A stretch of 20,000 bases of DNA from an uncultured virus (IMG/VR IMGVR_UViG_3300015610_000291) (Duplodnaviria; Heunggongvirae; Uroviricota; Caudoviricetes): positions 60,936 to 80,935 of IMG/VR virus record IMGVR_UViG_3300015610_000291; one strand, written 5' to 3'. Below are positions 1 through 11,622 of the stretch, in pieces. The translations under genes and the position numbers were made by a program. The stretch's first letter is position 1. Every line of letters begins with the position of its first letter. The notes below the pieces were generated by a model. That model was not told the DNA's origin. It worked only from the letters and a program-made list of their open reading frames with translations, and did no database searches.

Positions 1-240
1 AAACTCAAGTGCAGGAGCTAACTCAGCAGGGACTACCTGTTGTCGCAAATCATCATCAGAAAACAGGGCATAATCTTCTGGCTTCCACCATGAATGACAG
101 CCCCAATAGATTGCGCCTGTACTGTCAATTAACTTTACAGATAGATTGTTTTCACCACATCCATACAACTCTGCGATTTGATTGATAGCGTCTTTGTGGG
201 CATCGGGGATGATGTTTACTACGGATAAGTTGAATTTCAT
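1..240 (-). CDS. Hypothetical phage protein, 3' end outside the window (MKFNLSVVNIIPDAHKDAINQIAELYGCGENNLSV...YWGCHSWW...)
   Basis: Open frame from ATG at 240 to the window edge. The ATGA overlap with the stop of the upstream 306-aa gene indicates translational coupling. Not in the supplied ORF track. Confidence 0.85.
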   Translation of the reverse strand, partial: MKFNLSVVNIIPDAHKDAINQIAELYGCGENNLSVKLIDSTGAIYWGCHSWWKPEDYALFSDDDLRQQVVPAELAPALEF

Positions 241-1157
241 ACACCAGCCCTCTTGTTGAATTCTCGCGTAATTGCTGAGGTTTCACTAGGAGTTAAAGCC
301 CTGTTAATCACAATCAGTCCACAATGGTCAGTGTTGTCATTGTATGGTGTAGGGATTGTTTGATTTGTGAGAATCTGAGTTCCCACATTTGGAACGGCTC
401 GAATCACTGTGCAGCCTGTGAGTTGTGCAGGTAGTGTTGTTGTAAGCTTGTCGTCTACAGTGTCGTAGTCTAGTCGTTGAGGTGATGCGACAAGTAATGG
501 ACGCATTGATGATGTGGATTGGTAGGCGTGGTTGCCTGCTAGACCCTTAACACTAATATTGTCAATTGTTGCAGTCGTTCCGTTAATTCTTGCCCTAATG
601 TAAACATTGGCTGATTGTGCAACAATGTATTCAGTGTAAGTACCAGCAGTTGCTCTAATAGTCCCCAAGTTTGACCCCATAGCGCAACTAACAGACCCAC
701 CAGAAATACTGATGATAGTGTACGTTACTTTATAGAGCTGACCTACGATGAAGTTCGTTGGGTTTGCTTGTAGCACGAGTGCCCCTGACTCTGCGTTATT
801 GAAATTAACTACCCCACCTGAAATTGTTACTGTTCCGCTTGTTATCCAGCTTGTCGCCCCTGAGCTAAAATCACCATTCAAAACCAATTCAGAACTTAGC
901 GTAAGACCCTTACTCTTATCCAGCATCAACCCTACAGCCTGCCCCACACCAGTGACAGGCACAGTCCCCGCTGCATCTTGATACATTGTAGATAGATCAT
1001 TCGGATCGTAAGCAAAACCTTGCTCATTGTTTGCGAATAGGGATTTGATGATTTGGTTAAGTGTCAAATTAAAAACATTACCAACATTACCAAATGTTCT
1101 TGAAAAAATACTACTTATATCATTACTCAACACTGAGGATTTTCTTGAATAGATCAT
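237..1157 (-). CDS. Putative virion-associated (head/tail fibre or decoration-like) protein with a central carbohydrate-binding-module-like beta domain
   Basis: 306-aa ORF rich in Thr/Ser/Gly/Asn. The N-terminal LFANNEQGFAYDPNDLSTMYQDAAG...VGLMLDKS segment resembles phage structural proteins. ELVLNGDFSSGATSW resembles the start of CBM4/9-like modules. Function is inferred. Confidence 0.6.
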   Translation of the reverse strand: MIYSRKSSVLSNDISSIFSRTFGNVGNVFNLTLNQIIKSLFANNEQGFAYDPNDLSTMYQDAAGTVPVTGVGQAVGLMLDKSKGLTLSSELVLNGDFSSGATSWITSGTVTISGGVVNFNNAESGALVLQANPTNFIVGQLYKVTYTIISISGGSVSCAMGSNLGTIRATAGTYTEYIVAQSANVYIRARINGTTATIDNISVKGLAGNHAYQSTSSMRPLLVASPQRLDYDTVDDKLTTTLPAQLTGCTVIRAVPNVGTQILTNQTIPTPYNDNTDHCGLIVINRALTPSETSAITREFNKRAGV

Positions 1158-1159
1158 AG

Positions 1160-1411
1160 TTATACTTCTGATGTTAAGACAGTAATTTCAATAGTTTCTG
1201 CTGTTGGTGTCCATGCCCATAAAGGAAAACCAGCAGAAACAGATAGGTCGTTAGTTAAGATTTGACAATAAGGCGTAGTTAAAGGGTTTGGAGAAGCTGT
1301 TGTACAAGTAAAGCGTGTATTAGAACCACGAATCTCTTGGATATAAGCAGCCTTAGTTCCATTTAAGATTTGTGTTGGAGTTTGTGTTAGTGTAAATTTT
1401 TGAGCAGCCAT
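1160..1411 (-). CDS. Small beta-rich hypothetical protein, possibly virion-associated
   Basis: 83-aa ORF with AAGAGA SD-like sequence, 2 nt from the next gene in the same orientation. Confidence 0.75.
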   Translation of the reverse strand: MAAQKFTLTQTPTQILNGTKAAYIQEIRGSNTRFTCTTASPNPLTTPYCQILTNDLSVSAGFPLWAWTPTAETIEITVLTSEV

Positions 1412-1855
1412 TTTTATATCTCTTATTCAATTGTTTTTAGAATCTTGTATTATTGTATGTATTAACGACCACTCTAACCTGTCTTAATACTGAGAACACA
1501 GAAGTTGTTCCCCTCTCCACAACTAAAGCTGACATTGCATCAGCTAAATGTTATTATTTATTGTTGTTTTCTTTCTTATTATAAAACTGATTTATCAAGT
1601 AGGGCGTATGTTAAACTTAGCTGATACTATGTAACCACGAATGCTTACACTAACGGTTCGTTCAATAGTCTTTTAGACTTCCACCTACCTCTGTTTACAC
1701 CTAACAGATTCGTCACAAAGGGTTGTTATATGCAAGGATGACGGTGAACATATACAACTAACATCTTACGATTGATAAAACTGAATCAGTTGGTAGTCTA
1801 TTCCTGCCTGTCAACTATCGTCACCCTCCTCAACTAAACAGAGACTTTGGGAGGC

Positions 1856-1904
1856 TATGAGACCCATAAGGGTTTCTGTGTATCTCAACACTTCATCAGT
1901 CATA
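1856..1904 (-). ncRNA. Type I hammerhead ribozyme
   Basis: Minus strand reads TATGA-CTGATGA-A-GTGT-TGAGAT-ACAC-A-GAAA-CCC-TTAT-GGG-TC^TCATA. It shows the CUGAUGA and GAAA core, stems I, II and III, and a GUC cleavage triplet (cut predicted between 1861 and 1860). Stem I can extend via CAGAGAC (1912-1918) / GTCTCTG (1839-1845). Confidence 0.85.
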
Positions 1905-1996
1905 TTAACTTGTCTCTGCCTGAGCAACTACTTCGATAGTGGTGTTGCTGTAGGACTATTTTGTCTTTCGACAATCTTTAATATACAGGATACCCA

Positions 1997-2224
1997 TCAA
2001 TAGATGGGATTCTTCTGAGGAGTAACACAACCATAAAACATTTGCTGTTCTACAATACCTTCAAACTTTACATCTTTATTATAATCTAAATCTCGTAAAC
2101 TCTTATTCACTTCATCACGACAGACATTACAGAAAGTTTCCTCAATCTTCGACCCATCAGAGAGTGTTCTCATTCCTGTTGTTCTTCGTAGCACTACGTT
2201 ACAGCATACACATCTACCTGACAT
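1997..2224 (-). CDS. Small Cys4 zinc-finger-like protein
   Basis: CVCC...CNVC motifs. SD GAGGTG precedes the ATG at 2224. It is the only conventional CDS within the RNA island. Confidence 0.8.
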   Translation of the reverse strand: MSGRCVCCNVVLRRTTGMRTLSDGSKIEETFCNVCRDEVNKSLRDLDYNKDVKFEGIVEQQMFYGCVTPQKNPIY

Positions 2225-2288
2225 CAAACACCTCTTATTATTATCTTAAATACTTCCCTTTTACCGACACAGATAAGGGTGATCTGCT

Positions 2289-2750
2289 ATGAGGACAATT
2301 CTTTACCTGCCCTGTCTAGATTGTTTTATCTTCGTATAAGATACTTCTGTCAACACAAGGAACGCATTAATCTTCTCTTACACCACGACAATCCTAAGCG
2401 TACTTGTTAAACTTGTTTTAACATCTTAAACATGAAGTAATCTGTAACGACATTGCAAATAGTTACACAGACAGTCTAAATTAACGCGCTTGGGATAATC
2501 ATCAACAACTGAAAGGATGCTCTCGACCAATTACTTCTGTTTAAAATCTCATTAATTAGATTGACTAACTTCACAGATTAGTCTTGAGGGATATGAATAA
2601 TATTCAACATCCAACACCGTTTAATAGCCTACCTATTAGCACCCACCACACAACTCAGTAACGCCAAGTCAATTGTGTGTTTGTTTCACTACATCTTTCA
2701 GGGATGGTTGTATTTACTCGTTACCCTCAACAACCTCATGTGCATGACTT
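2289..2750 (-). ncRNA. Candidate large structured, multi-pseudoknot ncRNA downstream of the tRNAs
   Basis: No credible ORF. Many complementary segment pairs, several crossing: 2724-2730/2584-2590, 2719-2724/2658-2663, 2695-2701/2509-2515, 2530-2544/2426-2441, 2486-2496/2391-2401, 2468-2474/2312-2318. Boundaries are approximate. Confidence 0.55.
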
Positions 2751-2757
2751 TAAAATT

Positions 2758-2845
2758 TGGCAGAGAGCATCTTAATCGAAAAGAATGCACAAAGTACACA
2801 ATCTGTTTAGCAAACAGTTTCCAAGACCTCTTGGATTTACTCTCT
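2758..2845 (-). tRNA. tRNA-Ser(GCT), divergent T arm
   Basis: Acceptor AGAGAGT/GCTCTCT, G73 discriminator, encoded CCA. Anticodon arm CTGT-TT-GCT-AA-ACAG, long variable arm, T loop TTCGATT closed by T-A instead of G-C. Confidence 0.8.
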
Positions 2846-2846
2846 G

Positions 2847-2937
2847 TGGCGGAAGGTGAGAGGGTCGAACTCTCAAGGCTTTTACACTCGACTGTTTTCA
2901 AGACAGCTCCCATCGCCAGCTATTGGGTTGACCTTCC
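2847..2937 (-). tRNA. tRNA-Ser(TGA)
   Basis: GGAAGGT/ACCTTCC acceptor, G73 and CCA. Anticodon arm GCTGT-CT-TGA-AA-ACAGT, long variable arm, T arm GAGAG-TTCGACC-CTCTC. Confidence 0.96.
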
Positions 2938-3250
2938 AGATGACCTCTTGTGAACACGGGAGAGGTCTTAACCGTTTTACACACAAGACAACATGGTCTG
3001 CTGCACGCAACAGATAAGATAGTCTGCTATCTCGTATCTTTCAATCTACATTTCAACCAACAAATCCCGAAGCAATTGCGTCTATCGGAGGAGGTTAGGT
3101 AGTGGAACACCTATTAAGTAACCAAACAGTTTGAGCGTCTATCGAAGTGTCCCGATACAGCACAAGAGCAACCTCTCATTCTAGGCTTGTTTGGTGTTAT
3201 TTAACTACAAATCCCAACCTTCGTTTATGGTTTTAGGATTACATCCTTCT

Positions 3251-3283
3251 TTACCAAATCTCCTACAATCTGATACCTTCTTT
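3251..3283 (-). repeat. Copy 1 of a 33-bp motif (AAAGAA-NN-TATCAGATTGTAGGAGATTTGGTAA), inverted relative to 4257-4289
   Basis: 3251-3275 is the exact reverse complement of 4265-4289. Identity extends to 31 of 33 bp. Confidence 0.95.
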
Positions 3284-3286
3284 CAT
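3263..3286 (-). CDS. Putative 7-aa minigene MKEGIRL
   Basis: GGAG SD at 3294-3297, 7-nt spacer, ATG AAA GAA GGT ATC AGA TTG TAG. Lies 24 nt downstream of the tRNA-like RNA. Confidence 0.35.
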   Translation of the reverse strand: MKEGIRL

Positions 3287-3310
3287 AGAATTTCTCCGAT
3301 TATAGAAATT

Positions 3311-3398
3311 TGGAGTCCTCACAGTGAATCGAACACTTCGGCTACCTTCCCTCTGTTTAATGCCACAAGCTTAGAAGACTCGTGAGGGGAGCAAGGAC
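3311..3398 (-). ncRNA. Atypical tRNA-like RNA with Arg(TCT) anticodon loop, 8/4 acceptor/T fold and no canonical D arm
   Basis: GTCCTTGC/GTGAGGAC 8-bp acceptor plus T-CCA. T arm AGTG-TTCGATT-CACT. Anticodon hairpin CACGAGT-CT-TCT-AA-GCTTGTG. TCCCCT/AGAGGGA helix sits where the D arm would be. Confidence 0.75.
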
Positions 3399-3429
3399 AA
3401 CAATTAGTGTCGGTTACAATTATCCGACT

Positions 3430-3599
3430 CCACTAGCTAACTGTATTCCGAAGGAGATGACAGAATAAAGTCAGATGGATGACATAGGAGACAACTTTAA
3501 ATCTTGGAGTAGGGTTGGTGTCCCTACGGCTTGCAAGAGGAGTAGGAGTTCCTGATCAAGCACCTTCAGCGACAAGAATTAACATGTATTTTCTAGTGG
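3430..3599 (-). ncRNA. Candidate ~170-nt sRNA with multiple anti-Shine-Dalgarno (CUCC/CUCCU) motifs
   Basis: Starts right after the promoter at 3610-3638. Ends pair (CCACTAG 3593-3599 with CTAGTGG 3430-3436). Five CUCC motifs, four of them CUCCU. No credible ORF. Confidence 0.55.
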
Positions 3600-3609
3600 C
3601 TATATAGAC

Positions 3610-3638
3610 ATATTAACCCACGATCTTCAACCTGTCAA
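3610..3638 (-). promoter_or_regulatory. sigma70-type promoter of the RNA island
   Basis: TTGACA-17 bp-TAATAT on the minus strand. Predicted start near 3603. Confidence 0.8.
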
Positions 3639-4096
3639 CCCCTTTTCAGCACATAAACCAACCAAAACACACAAAAATATCAAAATTTATATAAATTCTT
3701 ATGAAATTTACACCAAATCACGTTTAATTCACAACAACTAGCACCAAATGGGTATAAATTTAATAAAATACGTTCTTGTCTAAGAGCAACACCAAACACA
3801 ATTAGTCAAGATAACGCAGTTAAACCTGTTTACACCTCAAACAGAAGTGATTATATAAATTATACATACAAAGACTAAATGAGATACATTCTTAATAAGA
3901 ATACTACTGTATGTGATCTAATCCCTATTAGATATGTAATAAGAATATTAATATATATACTAATTATATATATATAGTTTATTATATTTATATAAATAAA
4001 TCTAATTGTCTAGAATCATACATAGCTCATGTATTCTAGATATATAATATTATTTGTTTTTAATTAATATAGCTAATCCCCTTACCCCTTGATTTA

Positions 4097-4125
4097 AATT
4101 TAACATCGGTGTCAAGTCTTGTCAA
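4097..4125 (-). promoter_or_regulatory. Second leftward sigma70-type promoter
   Basis: TTGACA-17 bp-TAAATT with a TGn extended -10. Confidence 0.5.
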
Positions 4126-4214
4126 GTACCTAAAATCAAAGTTTTTTGTAACAATGACGTAAGTGTAAGAAAAATAAGAAATTAAATATATTTTGGTTTG
4201 TGTGCTAAAACCTA

Positions 4215-4243
4215 TTGACGTAGCTAAATTCTAGTTGTATAAT
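4215..4243 (+). promoter_or_regulatory. sigma70-type promoter of the rightward gene cluster
   Basis: TTGACG-17 bp-TATAAT. Confidence 0.85.
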
Positions 4244-4256
4244 CGAACTTAGAAAC

Positions 4257-4289
4257 AAAGAAATTATCAGATTGTAGGAGATTTGGTAA
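4257..4289 (+). repeat. Copy 2 of the 33-bp motif, forming a leader hairpin with a TGTAGGAG loop
   Basis: AATTATCAGAT-TGTAGGAG-ATTTGGTAATT hairpin about 12 nt after the predicted start. Matches 3251-3283 on the opposite strand. Confidence 0.9.
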
Positions 4290-4327
4290 TTCTAAACAAA
4301 CTAATTTAGCTAAAGAGGAAATATATT

Positions 4328-4678
4328 ATGGCGTTTGTAGTAAATCAAGATGAGACTGTATCGGTAACAGCGTACTCATTGCACGAGTTTGCATTTGACC
4401 TAGCTTATCTAGGAAGTAAAGGTTTTACACCTTCACTTGAGAATAAGTACTGTCCGTGGGGAGGTATCTCAGGTGGTATGTATAACGCAACATTGGTGAA
4501 GTTGACTGATTATTACATTGACTTACAAGGTAATCACATCAACGCTCCGAAAGATGATGTTGAAGTAGCTGTTGAGAGTGTAAAGCAAGTGACAACATCT
4601 AGTGTTGAACAAGATGTAGAAGAAACTCCACCAGTTGTGCAAACAACTCGTACACGAAATAAGAAAACAAATACGTGA
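4328..4678 (+). CDS. Hypothetical protein with a low-complexity C-terminal tail
   Basis: 116-aa ORF, SD AGAGGA, first gene after the promoter. Confidence 0.85.
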   Translation: MAFVVNQDETVSVTAYSLHEFAFDLAYLGSKGFTPSLENKYCPWGGISGGMYNATLVKLTDYYIDLQGNHINAPKDDVEVAVESVKQVTTSSVEQDVEETPPVVQTTRTRNKKTNT

Positions 4679-4930: not shown

Positions 4931-4969
4931 AGATTATATTATTCAATATAACAACGAAGGAGATGTAGA

Positions 4970-5797: not shown

Positions 5798-5986
5798 ATG
5801 ATTTATTTTGTATTTTGGTATTTAGTGTTTGTTCTCGCAATGACATCACTATTCGAGTTATACAAGTGTGTTTCTGTAAAAGGAACTAATGGAGAGAAAG
5901 TTGGTTTACTGATTGGAACGATCTTCCGACAAGGTGTTACAGCTATTTTCTTATACGCTGTTTATCCTGTATTACAATTTGTTTGA
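5798..5986 (+). CDS. Small membrane protein (2 predicted TM segments)
   Basis: 62-aa hydrophobic ORF, SD AAGGAG. Confidence 0.85.
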   Translation: MIYFVFWYLVFVLAMTSLFELYKCVSVKGTNGEKVGLLIGTIFRQGVTAIFLYAVYPVLQFV

Positions 5987-11370: not shown

Positions 11371-11622
11371 ATGAAATTTAGTAAAGAACAAATTACTCAC
11401 ATTGGTACATTTGAGAACGGAGCTACAACATACATGCGAAAGAATAAGTGTGGACAATGGAATGTTTTAACTCTTGATCGCAAAGGATACCGATGGGATA
11501 TGTTGAATTACTTAAATTATCCAAAGTCAATTTACGAGGTAACACAAAAAGAGCTAGAAGATCACGTATTTGAATCAACACGGCAATTAAAGGAGACAAA
11601 ACATGAAAAATCTAATTCTTAA
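11371..11622 (+). CDS. Hypothetical protein
   Basis: 83-aa ORF, SD AAGGAG. Confidence 0.85.
   Translation: MKFSKEQITHIGTFENGATTYMRKNKCGQWNVLTLDRKGYRWDMLNYLNYPKSIYEVTQKELEDHVFESTRQLKETKHEKSNS

Follow-up and report, generated by a model that had tools for sequence, protein, structure and literature searches.

Two undescribed RNA modules with anti-Shine-Dalgarno-like motifs in a tRNA-linked non-coding region of uncultured phages

Small RNAs that lie beside or between tRNAs and are freed by tRNA processing include 3'ETS-leuZ of E. coli and stable RNAs encoded within the tRNA cluster of T4, and to our knowledge few regulatory RNAs of lytic phages have been described. The cuckoo (alpha-r14) sRNAs of Alphaproteobacteria are described as having 2–4 hairpins side by side, with stems that vary and loops that all bear CCUCCUCCC (PMC4615179), and NfeR1, which belongs to this group, is reported to pair with translation initiation regions (PMC10746234). 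The C4 antisense RNA of phages P1 and P7 is described as being excised from a longer transcript by RNase P, with loops that pair with the target mRNA and occlude its ribosome-binding site (RBS) (PMC5320573). In T4, early genes are reported to have frequent GGAG in their Shine-Dalgarno (SD) sequences; RegB targets this motif in the translation initiation regions of early mRNAs, whereas late transcripts escape (PMC3014915).

We analysed a 20,000-nt stretch of DNA (the window), which forms the final 20 kb of a viral contig that is 80,935 bp long and has direct repeats at its termini. The PhoH protein of this phage shares 68% identity with PhoH of the Acinetobacter phages TaPaz, BS46 and Phab24. 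Pfam and PHROGs scans placed the lysis, tail, capsid, portal and terminase genes at genome positions 40300–62346 on the minus strand, the head of this late block corresponding to window 1–1411, and the remaining blocks hold small early genes together with replication and nucleotide-metabolism genes. Between the head of the leftward late block and the rightward early operon that contains phoH, translation of window 1411–4328 with table 11 revealed no ORF that was convincing, and an alternative genetic code (TAG=Q or table 4) was discarded because it opened none in 1400–4330. This non-coding region contains, on the minus strand, the two RNA modules described below and, downstream of them, a tRNA-Ser(UGA) called by ARAGORN (2847–2937), which is 94.6% identical to tRNA-Ser of Acinetobacter phages.

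Modules A and B are a real, undescribed pair of phage RNA modules. Module A (3506–3600, minus strand) is a promoter-proximal leader, found in one copy in each of 12 loci with scores of 76–118 bits (model R2). It comprises a tentative hairpin P1 (3596–3573), the fold of which is uncertain, a single-stranded AAGGUG (3566–3561), hairpin P2 (3561–3529) with the loop ACUCCUAC at 3549–3542, and hairpin P3 (3526–3510) with the loop ACACCAA. Compensatory changes were detected in the outer and inner stems of P2 and in P3. In L088 and L134, AAGGUG is replaced by AAGGCG and the P3 loop reads AGUCAA; a pseudoknot between GGUG of the linker and CACC of the P3 loop was rejected, as both sides change in these two loci without compensation.

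Module B (3403–3497, minus strand) is supported by covariation and contains a linker motif UCUCCUA (3491–3485) before P4, the long hairpin P4 (3479–3429) with a 10-nt apical loop UCAUCUCCUU at 3460–3451, an invariant GCUAG (3437–3433), and hairpin P5 (3428–3409) with the loop AUAAU..UAA. An independent RNAalifold analysis of 8 sequences yielded 24 pairs on the minus strand, 20 of them with compensatory changes (−18.8 kcal/mol), whereas on the plus strand P5 alone was left (7 pairs, −7.3 kcal/mol). Across 13 copies, in an alignment that is itself model-fitted, 92.6% of cells pair, compared with 63.5% in column shuffles and 32–39% with slid partners; both partners vary in 20 of 24 pairs, and the covariation score was reached by 0 of 500 shuffles. 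L134 and L167 each carry two copies of module B, the duplicate lying about 580–640 nt downstream.

Protein-anchored and pattern scans revealed both modules in 12 uncultured phage genomes, the window included: six from viral_contigs (L007/L016, L009/L017 with L008/L014, L010/L011/L043, L015/L049, L088/L160 and L134/L135), four from metagenome_contigs (L021, L022, L026 and L029), and one locus (L167) on a 2.7-kb contig assigned to a gammaproteobacterial MAG. Many hits of the pattern scans were discarded as chance matches in coding sequence (5/10, 6/10 and 3/4 in three scans), and in one pattern scan 9 of 110 loci passed the motif filter and were judged homologous. No Rfam family apart from tRNA matched the window, the region 1300–4400 or the relatives, and searches of 50,697 phage records (megablast and blastn 'distant') returned no homologue of the modules, and no cultured phage matched them. 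TaPaz and Phab24 lack the modules; searched in full with the two models at unfiltered settings, the TaPaz genome gave noise only (best E 0.19–0.47 at about 15 bits). No description of the modules was found in the open-access papers and preprints searched.

Upstream of module A lies a sigma-70-type promoter (TTGACA-17-TAATAT; 3610–3638, minus strand) scoring 10/12, and module A follows the promoter directly in 12/12 loci. The −35 element is TTGACA in 11 of the 12 homologous loci and TAGACA in one, and a −10-like hexamer is kept after it in these 12 loci, with intervening spacers unrelated in sequence. All tRNAs adjoining the modules, in the window and in the relatives, are co-oriented with them. 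Module A folds about as well on one strand as on the other, so the modules were assigned to the minus strand from the conserved promoter, the orientation of the tRNAs and the strand-asymmetric covariation of module B. Transcription would start at about 3603, a few bases before the right-hand boundary of the interval 3430–3599 singled out by the initial annotation, and this interval would represent the 5' portion of a minus-strand non-coding transcript. No intrinsic terminator was found after the modules, and one weak terminator candidate was found on the transcript (1545–1527).

The initial annotation had presented the interval as the first module of a longer transcript, closed by a CCACTAG/CTAGTGG helix. 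Its placement at the start of a longer transcript is retained, on the minus strand and as non-coding RNA; the single closed module is not. Both heptamers are present (3430–3436 and 3593–3599), and their pairing appears in the minimum-energy fold of the window, in competition with the basal part of P4, which covaries. Relatives have a tRNA, 25–115 nt or an 846-nt gene insert between the two halves. With a gap of variable size between A and B, the closing helix is specific to the window and not a conserved feature. Its 3' arm, CUAGUGG, coincides in part with the invariant GCUAG and with the 3' strand of the covarying basal P4 helix.

The opposite orientation had also been proposed, with a plus-strand RNA whose GGA repeats, held in loops, would sponge CsrA/RsmA. 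Plus-strand hairpins would display AAGGAGAU and UAGGAGA, and the fold of module A is compatible with either strand, but no plus-strand promoter or terminator frames the modules, it is the minus strand that carries the conserved promoter and the tRNAs, and the G-U pairs used in the P4 helix become C-A on the plus strand, in line with the 7 pairs against 24 obtained for module B. On these grounds, we regard a CsrA/RsmA sponge as extremely improbable.

Contigs of relatives in Logan from two metatranscriptome runs cover parts of 3406–3728, without indicating strand, ends or level and with DNA as a possible source. One such contig of a relative carries a 90-nt insert between 3485 and 3509. Two short X15 contigs span exactly 3414–3600, which may equally reflect assembly breaks at mosaic junctions.

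Other parts of the non-coding region were also characterized. The remainder of the 2.2-kb non-coding transcript (1461–3151, minus strand) is a mosaic of blocks (1461–1786, 1978–2234, 2423–2513 and 3097–3151), each 76–93% identical to a different relative; the block 1978–2234 includes a 75-aa ORF without a family, and further RNA modules may lie within 1461–3151. Just after module B, the segment 3305–3402 (minus strand) shows a 7-bp acceptor-like helix and a T-loop-like motif GUUCGAUUC, and its part 3311–3373 is 98% identical to a stretch of L009. Neither ARAGORN nor the Rfam tRNA model called a tRNA in 3305–3402, and its folding was no better than that of shuffles (z = −0.33); it may represent the remnant of a tRNA or serve as a handle for RNase P. 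The spacer of about 560 bp between the divergent promoters (3650–4215) is very AT-rich (22–29% GC) with TATATA-type runs. A closely spaced TGTCAAG repeat pair at 4107–4126 recurs in relatives and reads on the minus strand as TTGACA −35-like hexamers, and the spacer could contain an origin, operators or an extra upstream promoter at 4125–4097.

The motif UCUCCU(A/U) of the modules is, in its sequence, a near-copy of the 16S rRNA anti-SD. Five CUCC motifs had been reported in the interval, and the corresponding plus-strand GGAG at 3453, 3487, 3506, 3539 and 3545 were confirmed. The 80.9-kb genome contains 210 GGAG, a mean of 0.44 per 170 nt, and reaches at least five per 170 nt at 3 places including this one, so that the density is unusual but not unique. 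As for the suggestion that all five serve as seeds, three are conserved and predicted to be unpaired rather than buried in helices: AUCUCCUU in the P4 apical loop (3458–3451), invariant in 13/13 copies, with an unpaired probability of 0.96–1.00 in 6/6 folds; CUCCU in the P2 loop (3548–3544), present in 12/12, with a probability of 0.99–1.00 in 4/6 folds and of 0.43 and 0.82 in two insert-bearing variants; and UCUCCU in the linker before P4 (3491–3486), present in 11/13, being absent from the two second copies of B, with a probability of 0.57–0.92. The other two drop out. CUCC at 3542–3539 is the 3' arm of P2 and is replaced in L088 and L134 by ACUUC with a compensating change, the stem becoming GAAGU/ACUUC and the loop motif being retained, and CUCC at 3509–3506 lies in a window-specific flank and is missing from most relatives.

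We consider it plausible, at a little under an even chance, that the modules act in trans by pairing with AGGAGA-type SD sequences. Such complementarity is generic, as every SD is matched by every motif of the anti-SD type, and the seeds have a length of only 7–8 nt. A narrower version, an antisense regulator specific for phoH, rested on CGAAGGAGATG at 3449–3459, which is indeed identical over 11 nt to 4955–4965, just before phoH (ATG 4970). AAGGAGAT likewise precedes the starts at 5798, 6000, 11371 and 13105, and AGGAGACAA precedes the start at 11603. The exact identity in this genome favours phoH as the target, but 39 of the 71 AGGAG-bearing RBSs of this phage have at least 11 nt in common with another RBS, and in 4/4 relatives (L007, L008, L009 and L010) the phoH RBS differs and matches the corresponding motif no further than the AGGAGA-type core. 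The match is at chance level and unconserved, and specific targeting of phoH is very improbable. What survives, once corrected, is the general idea of an RNA complementary to SD sequences, without the proposed closing helix and without phoH as its target.

The arrangement of A, B and the tRNAs was compared among the relatives. Nothing lies between A and B in the window, L007, L049, L134 and L167 (gap −2 to 8 nt), whereas a 25-nt insert was found in L009 and L021 (27 nt), a spacer in L029 (58 nt) and L088 (115 nt), tRNA-Phe in L026 (76 nt), tRNA-Arg in L043 (87 nt), and an inserted gene, by eye homing-endonuclease-like, in L022 (70–915, minus strand; 846 nt). L026 carries A, tRNA-Phe, B and tRNA-Arg in this order, separated by 0–3 nt, and L043 carries A, tRNA-Arg and B; in L007, B is followed by tRNA-Arg. 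The tRNA starts 3 nt after module A in L026 and 7 nt after it in L043, and begins 1 nt past module B in L007 and L026. The window differs in that 466 nt separate the modules from the nearest tRNA called downstream. Downstream of the modules in the related phage G002, ARAGORN called a tRNA with a four-base anticodon (caga) at L049:11642–11735 (plus strand). Since the modules adjoin tRNAs in relatives, tRNA processing probably releases them, and the layout suggests that RNase P and tRNA 3'-end enzymes would free them as RNAs of about 95 nt.

The same layout bears on the possibility that the modules are structured RNAs that work without SD pairing, either as cis leader elements of the tRNA/late unit (for processive antitermination, transcript stabilisation or as a processing scaffold) or as protein or 30S sites, with UCUCCU serving as a protein or tertiary-contact motif. 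This possibility is consistent with the invariable position of module A immediately after the promoter, with the location of the unit at the head of the late gene block in 4/4 complete genomes, and with the occurrence of module B twice in one operon. It also gains from the other invariant unpaired nucleotides, AAGGUG, AUC, GCUAG and AUAAU..UAA, which SD pairing does not account for and which suggest a protein partner or a tertiary fold. However, the space between A and B can accommodate tRNAs and even a gene insert of 846 nt, and tRNAs directly flank both modules, so released RNAs fit better than a single cis element; moreover, the transcript offers no clear terminator to override, and no Rfam leader or antiterminator family was matched. 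A role without SD pairing is possible, but we hold it to be on the unlikely side.

A potential partner for SD-type pairing was found on the other side of the divergent region. The early operon is preceded by a promoter (TTGACG-17-TATAAT; 4215–4243, plus strand) scoring 11/12, with equivalents in relatives, and its leader starts about 700–770 nt from the modules on the opposite strand. About 10–20 nt past the inferred start, the leader forms a hairpin (4262–4291, plus strand) whose 10-nt loop (UUGUAGGAGA at 4272–4281) ends in UAGGAGA, an orphan SD-like motif; the true SD and ATG of the first early gene lie 25–45 nt beyond the hairpin (ATG 4328 in the window). RNAalifold analysis of 8 genomes gave 10 pairs, of which 7 show compensatory changes, with UAGGAGA invariant, and a ninth genome, L167, has GUAGGAGG. 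The hairpin was present in 9/9 module-bearing genomes with enough sequence (L026, L029 and L134 are too short), and GGAG is missing altogether from the corresponding leaders of the module-less phages TaPaz and Phab24, a co-occurrence that amounts to one clade against one clade. The leader loop is complementary over 7 nt to UCUCCUA, which occurs in the linker and in the P2 loop of most genomes, or to CUCCUAC in the window. Small ORFs behind AAGGUG or behind the orphan SD of the leader were judged by eye to be unconserved.

A second copy of the early-leader element (3251–3283, minus strand) lies inside the non-coding transcript and matches its counterpart at 4257–4289 (plus strand) in 31 of 33 nt. 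Both copies have the same orientation relative to transcription, each about 10 nt past a promoter-like site (3328–3299, minus strand; 4215–4243, plus strand). Among the loci searched, the minus-strand copy was found in this genome only.

The leader hairpin also bears on another interpretation of the anti-SD-like loops, namely that they mimic the 3' end of 16S rRNA and act as decoys for a factor that recognises the anti-SD, for instance a ribonuclease of host defence cleaving this region, instead of regulating mRNAs. Toxins that cleave rRNA are known, as are RNA decoys; AUCUCCUU, the invariant loop that is exposed, is similar to the anti-SD tail, and several copies are present per transcript. 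Nevertheless, we found no candidate partner, nothing in the neighbourhood points to one, and the conserved complementary hairpin in the early leader would be left unexplained, making decoys of this kind very improbable.

Pairing with SD sequences, the reading we favour, was then set against SD usage across the genome. Using our own simple ORF/RBS caller (ORFs of at least 40 aa, start by best SD; 136 genes in this genome), we found that AGGAGA is the commonest SD, in 51 genes compared with 5 for AGGAGG. GGAG was present in the RBSs of 3/24 late genes and of 81/112 other genes (P = 6.5e-8). A comparable split was observed in three relatives, G001 (late 9/31, other 72/102), G002 (late 6/19, other 68/101) and G003 (late 4/25, other 64/110). 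SD type is bimodal, in that early and middle genes mostly have AAGGAGA(A/U) SDs, and late structural and lysis genes have GAGGA or AAGGA types, with GGAG mostly avoided. Duplexes predicted between the three seeds and translation initiation regions were weaker for late genes, with a median best energy of −8.6 kcal/mol as against −10.6 kcal/mol for other genes, a difference equalled by 3 of 200 shuffled-seed sets. TaPaz, which has no modules, also prefers GGAGA over GGAGG and shows a weaker split (late 12/32, early block 23/29; P = 0.0017). Co-evolution of RBS type with the RNA was rejected as an explanation, since this module-less phage has the same split and the same preference; the RBS pattern is consistent with SD pairing and is not evidence that the RNA shaped the RBSs. 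A six-frame search of the genome for a RegB homologue (PF10715) gave 0 matches at E up to 1, and none appeared in Pfam scans of 101 and 37 ORFs, so the split is not otherwise explained by RegB.

Taken in sequence, the proposed mechanism would run as follows. A minus-strand transcript would start at about 3603 and extend through the tRNA region towards the late packaging, structural and lysis genes. Modules A and B would be cut free by tRNA-processing enzymes, presenting three exposed copies of UCUCCU(A/U), two in hairpin loops and one in a linker. The first target would be the orphan UAGGAGA in the loop of the divergent early-leader hairpin, and wider targets would be the AAGGAGA(U/A) RBSs that dominate early and middle genes, so that translation or stability of early mRNAs would be lowered progressively and late genes, with SDs largely lacking GGAG, would be spared. 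The promoter at 3638–3610 looks constitutive or early, and the RNA would therefore be made along with its proposed targets; this and the lack of an intrinsic terminator after the modules count against the mechanism. In its full extent, this amounts to an RNA-only counterpart of the T4 early shut-off, in which tRNA-operon RNAs would kiss the leader hairpin and mask AGGAGA RBSs, and early, middle (and host) translation would fade as the stable RNAs accumulate while GGAG-avoiding late genes keep their ribosomes. We think this complete scenario unlikely.

The analysis defines two new covariation-supported RNA modules common to at least 12 uncultured phages, and together with the complementary, conserved hairpin of the early leader they constitute a concrete and testable RNA-RNA pair. 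If the pairing is real, phage gene timing would be set by a ribosome-mimicking RNA released by tRNA processing, an RNA would do what the RegB and RegA proteins do in T4, and the early/late split in SD type would allow such control to be recognised in phage genomes from metagenomes.

Compared with the described systems, the modules resemble the cuckoo sRNAs, as far as the published descriptions cited above characterize them, in having hairpins with variable stems and a constant anti-SD-like loop motif. The motif itself differs: CCUCCUCCC occurs in none of the modules, whose loops and linker carry UCUCCU, ACUCCUAC and AUCUCCUU, with UCUCCU(A/U) as the common element. Cuckoo RNAs are described as chromosomal bacterial sRNAs, whereas the modules are phage-encoded and sit in a tRNA operon without a terminator of their own; they also carry further invariant motifs and have no Rfam match. 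Given the different loop motif and the lack of an Rfam match, the modules are not members of the cuckoo group. C4 is likewise a phage RNA, with three stem-loops in its published description, but its loops are target-specific and the motifs here are generic anti-SD sequences; release here would rely on flanking tRNAs, and the proposed target is on the divergent transcript. The Rfam C4 model had no match in the window at the gathering score, none in the region 1300–4400 at E up to 10, and none in the relatives at E up to 1. RNAs of the CsrB/RsmZ type differ in that the transcribed strand here carries CUCC and not GGAG, and classical terminator-ended trans sRNAs differ in that no terminator-like site was found at 3400–3430 (minus strand). 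With the T4 RegB system (with RegA), as its source describes it, this phage has in common a split between GGAG-rich early and GGAG-poor late genes; RegB is a protein nuclease, whereas here, with no RegB homologue, recognition would hypothetically be carried out by RNA. Finally, like small RNAs derived from tRNA precursors, the modules belong to one transcription unit with tRNAs, which they directly abut in L026, L043 and L007, and they differ from those RNAs in sequence and fold and in carrying anti-SD loops.
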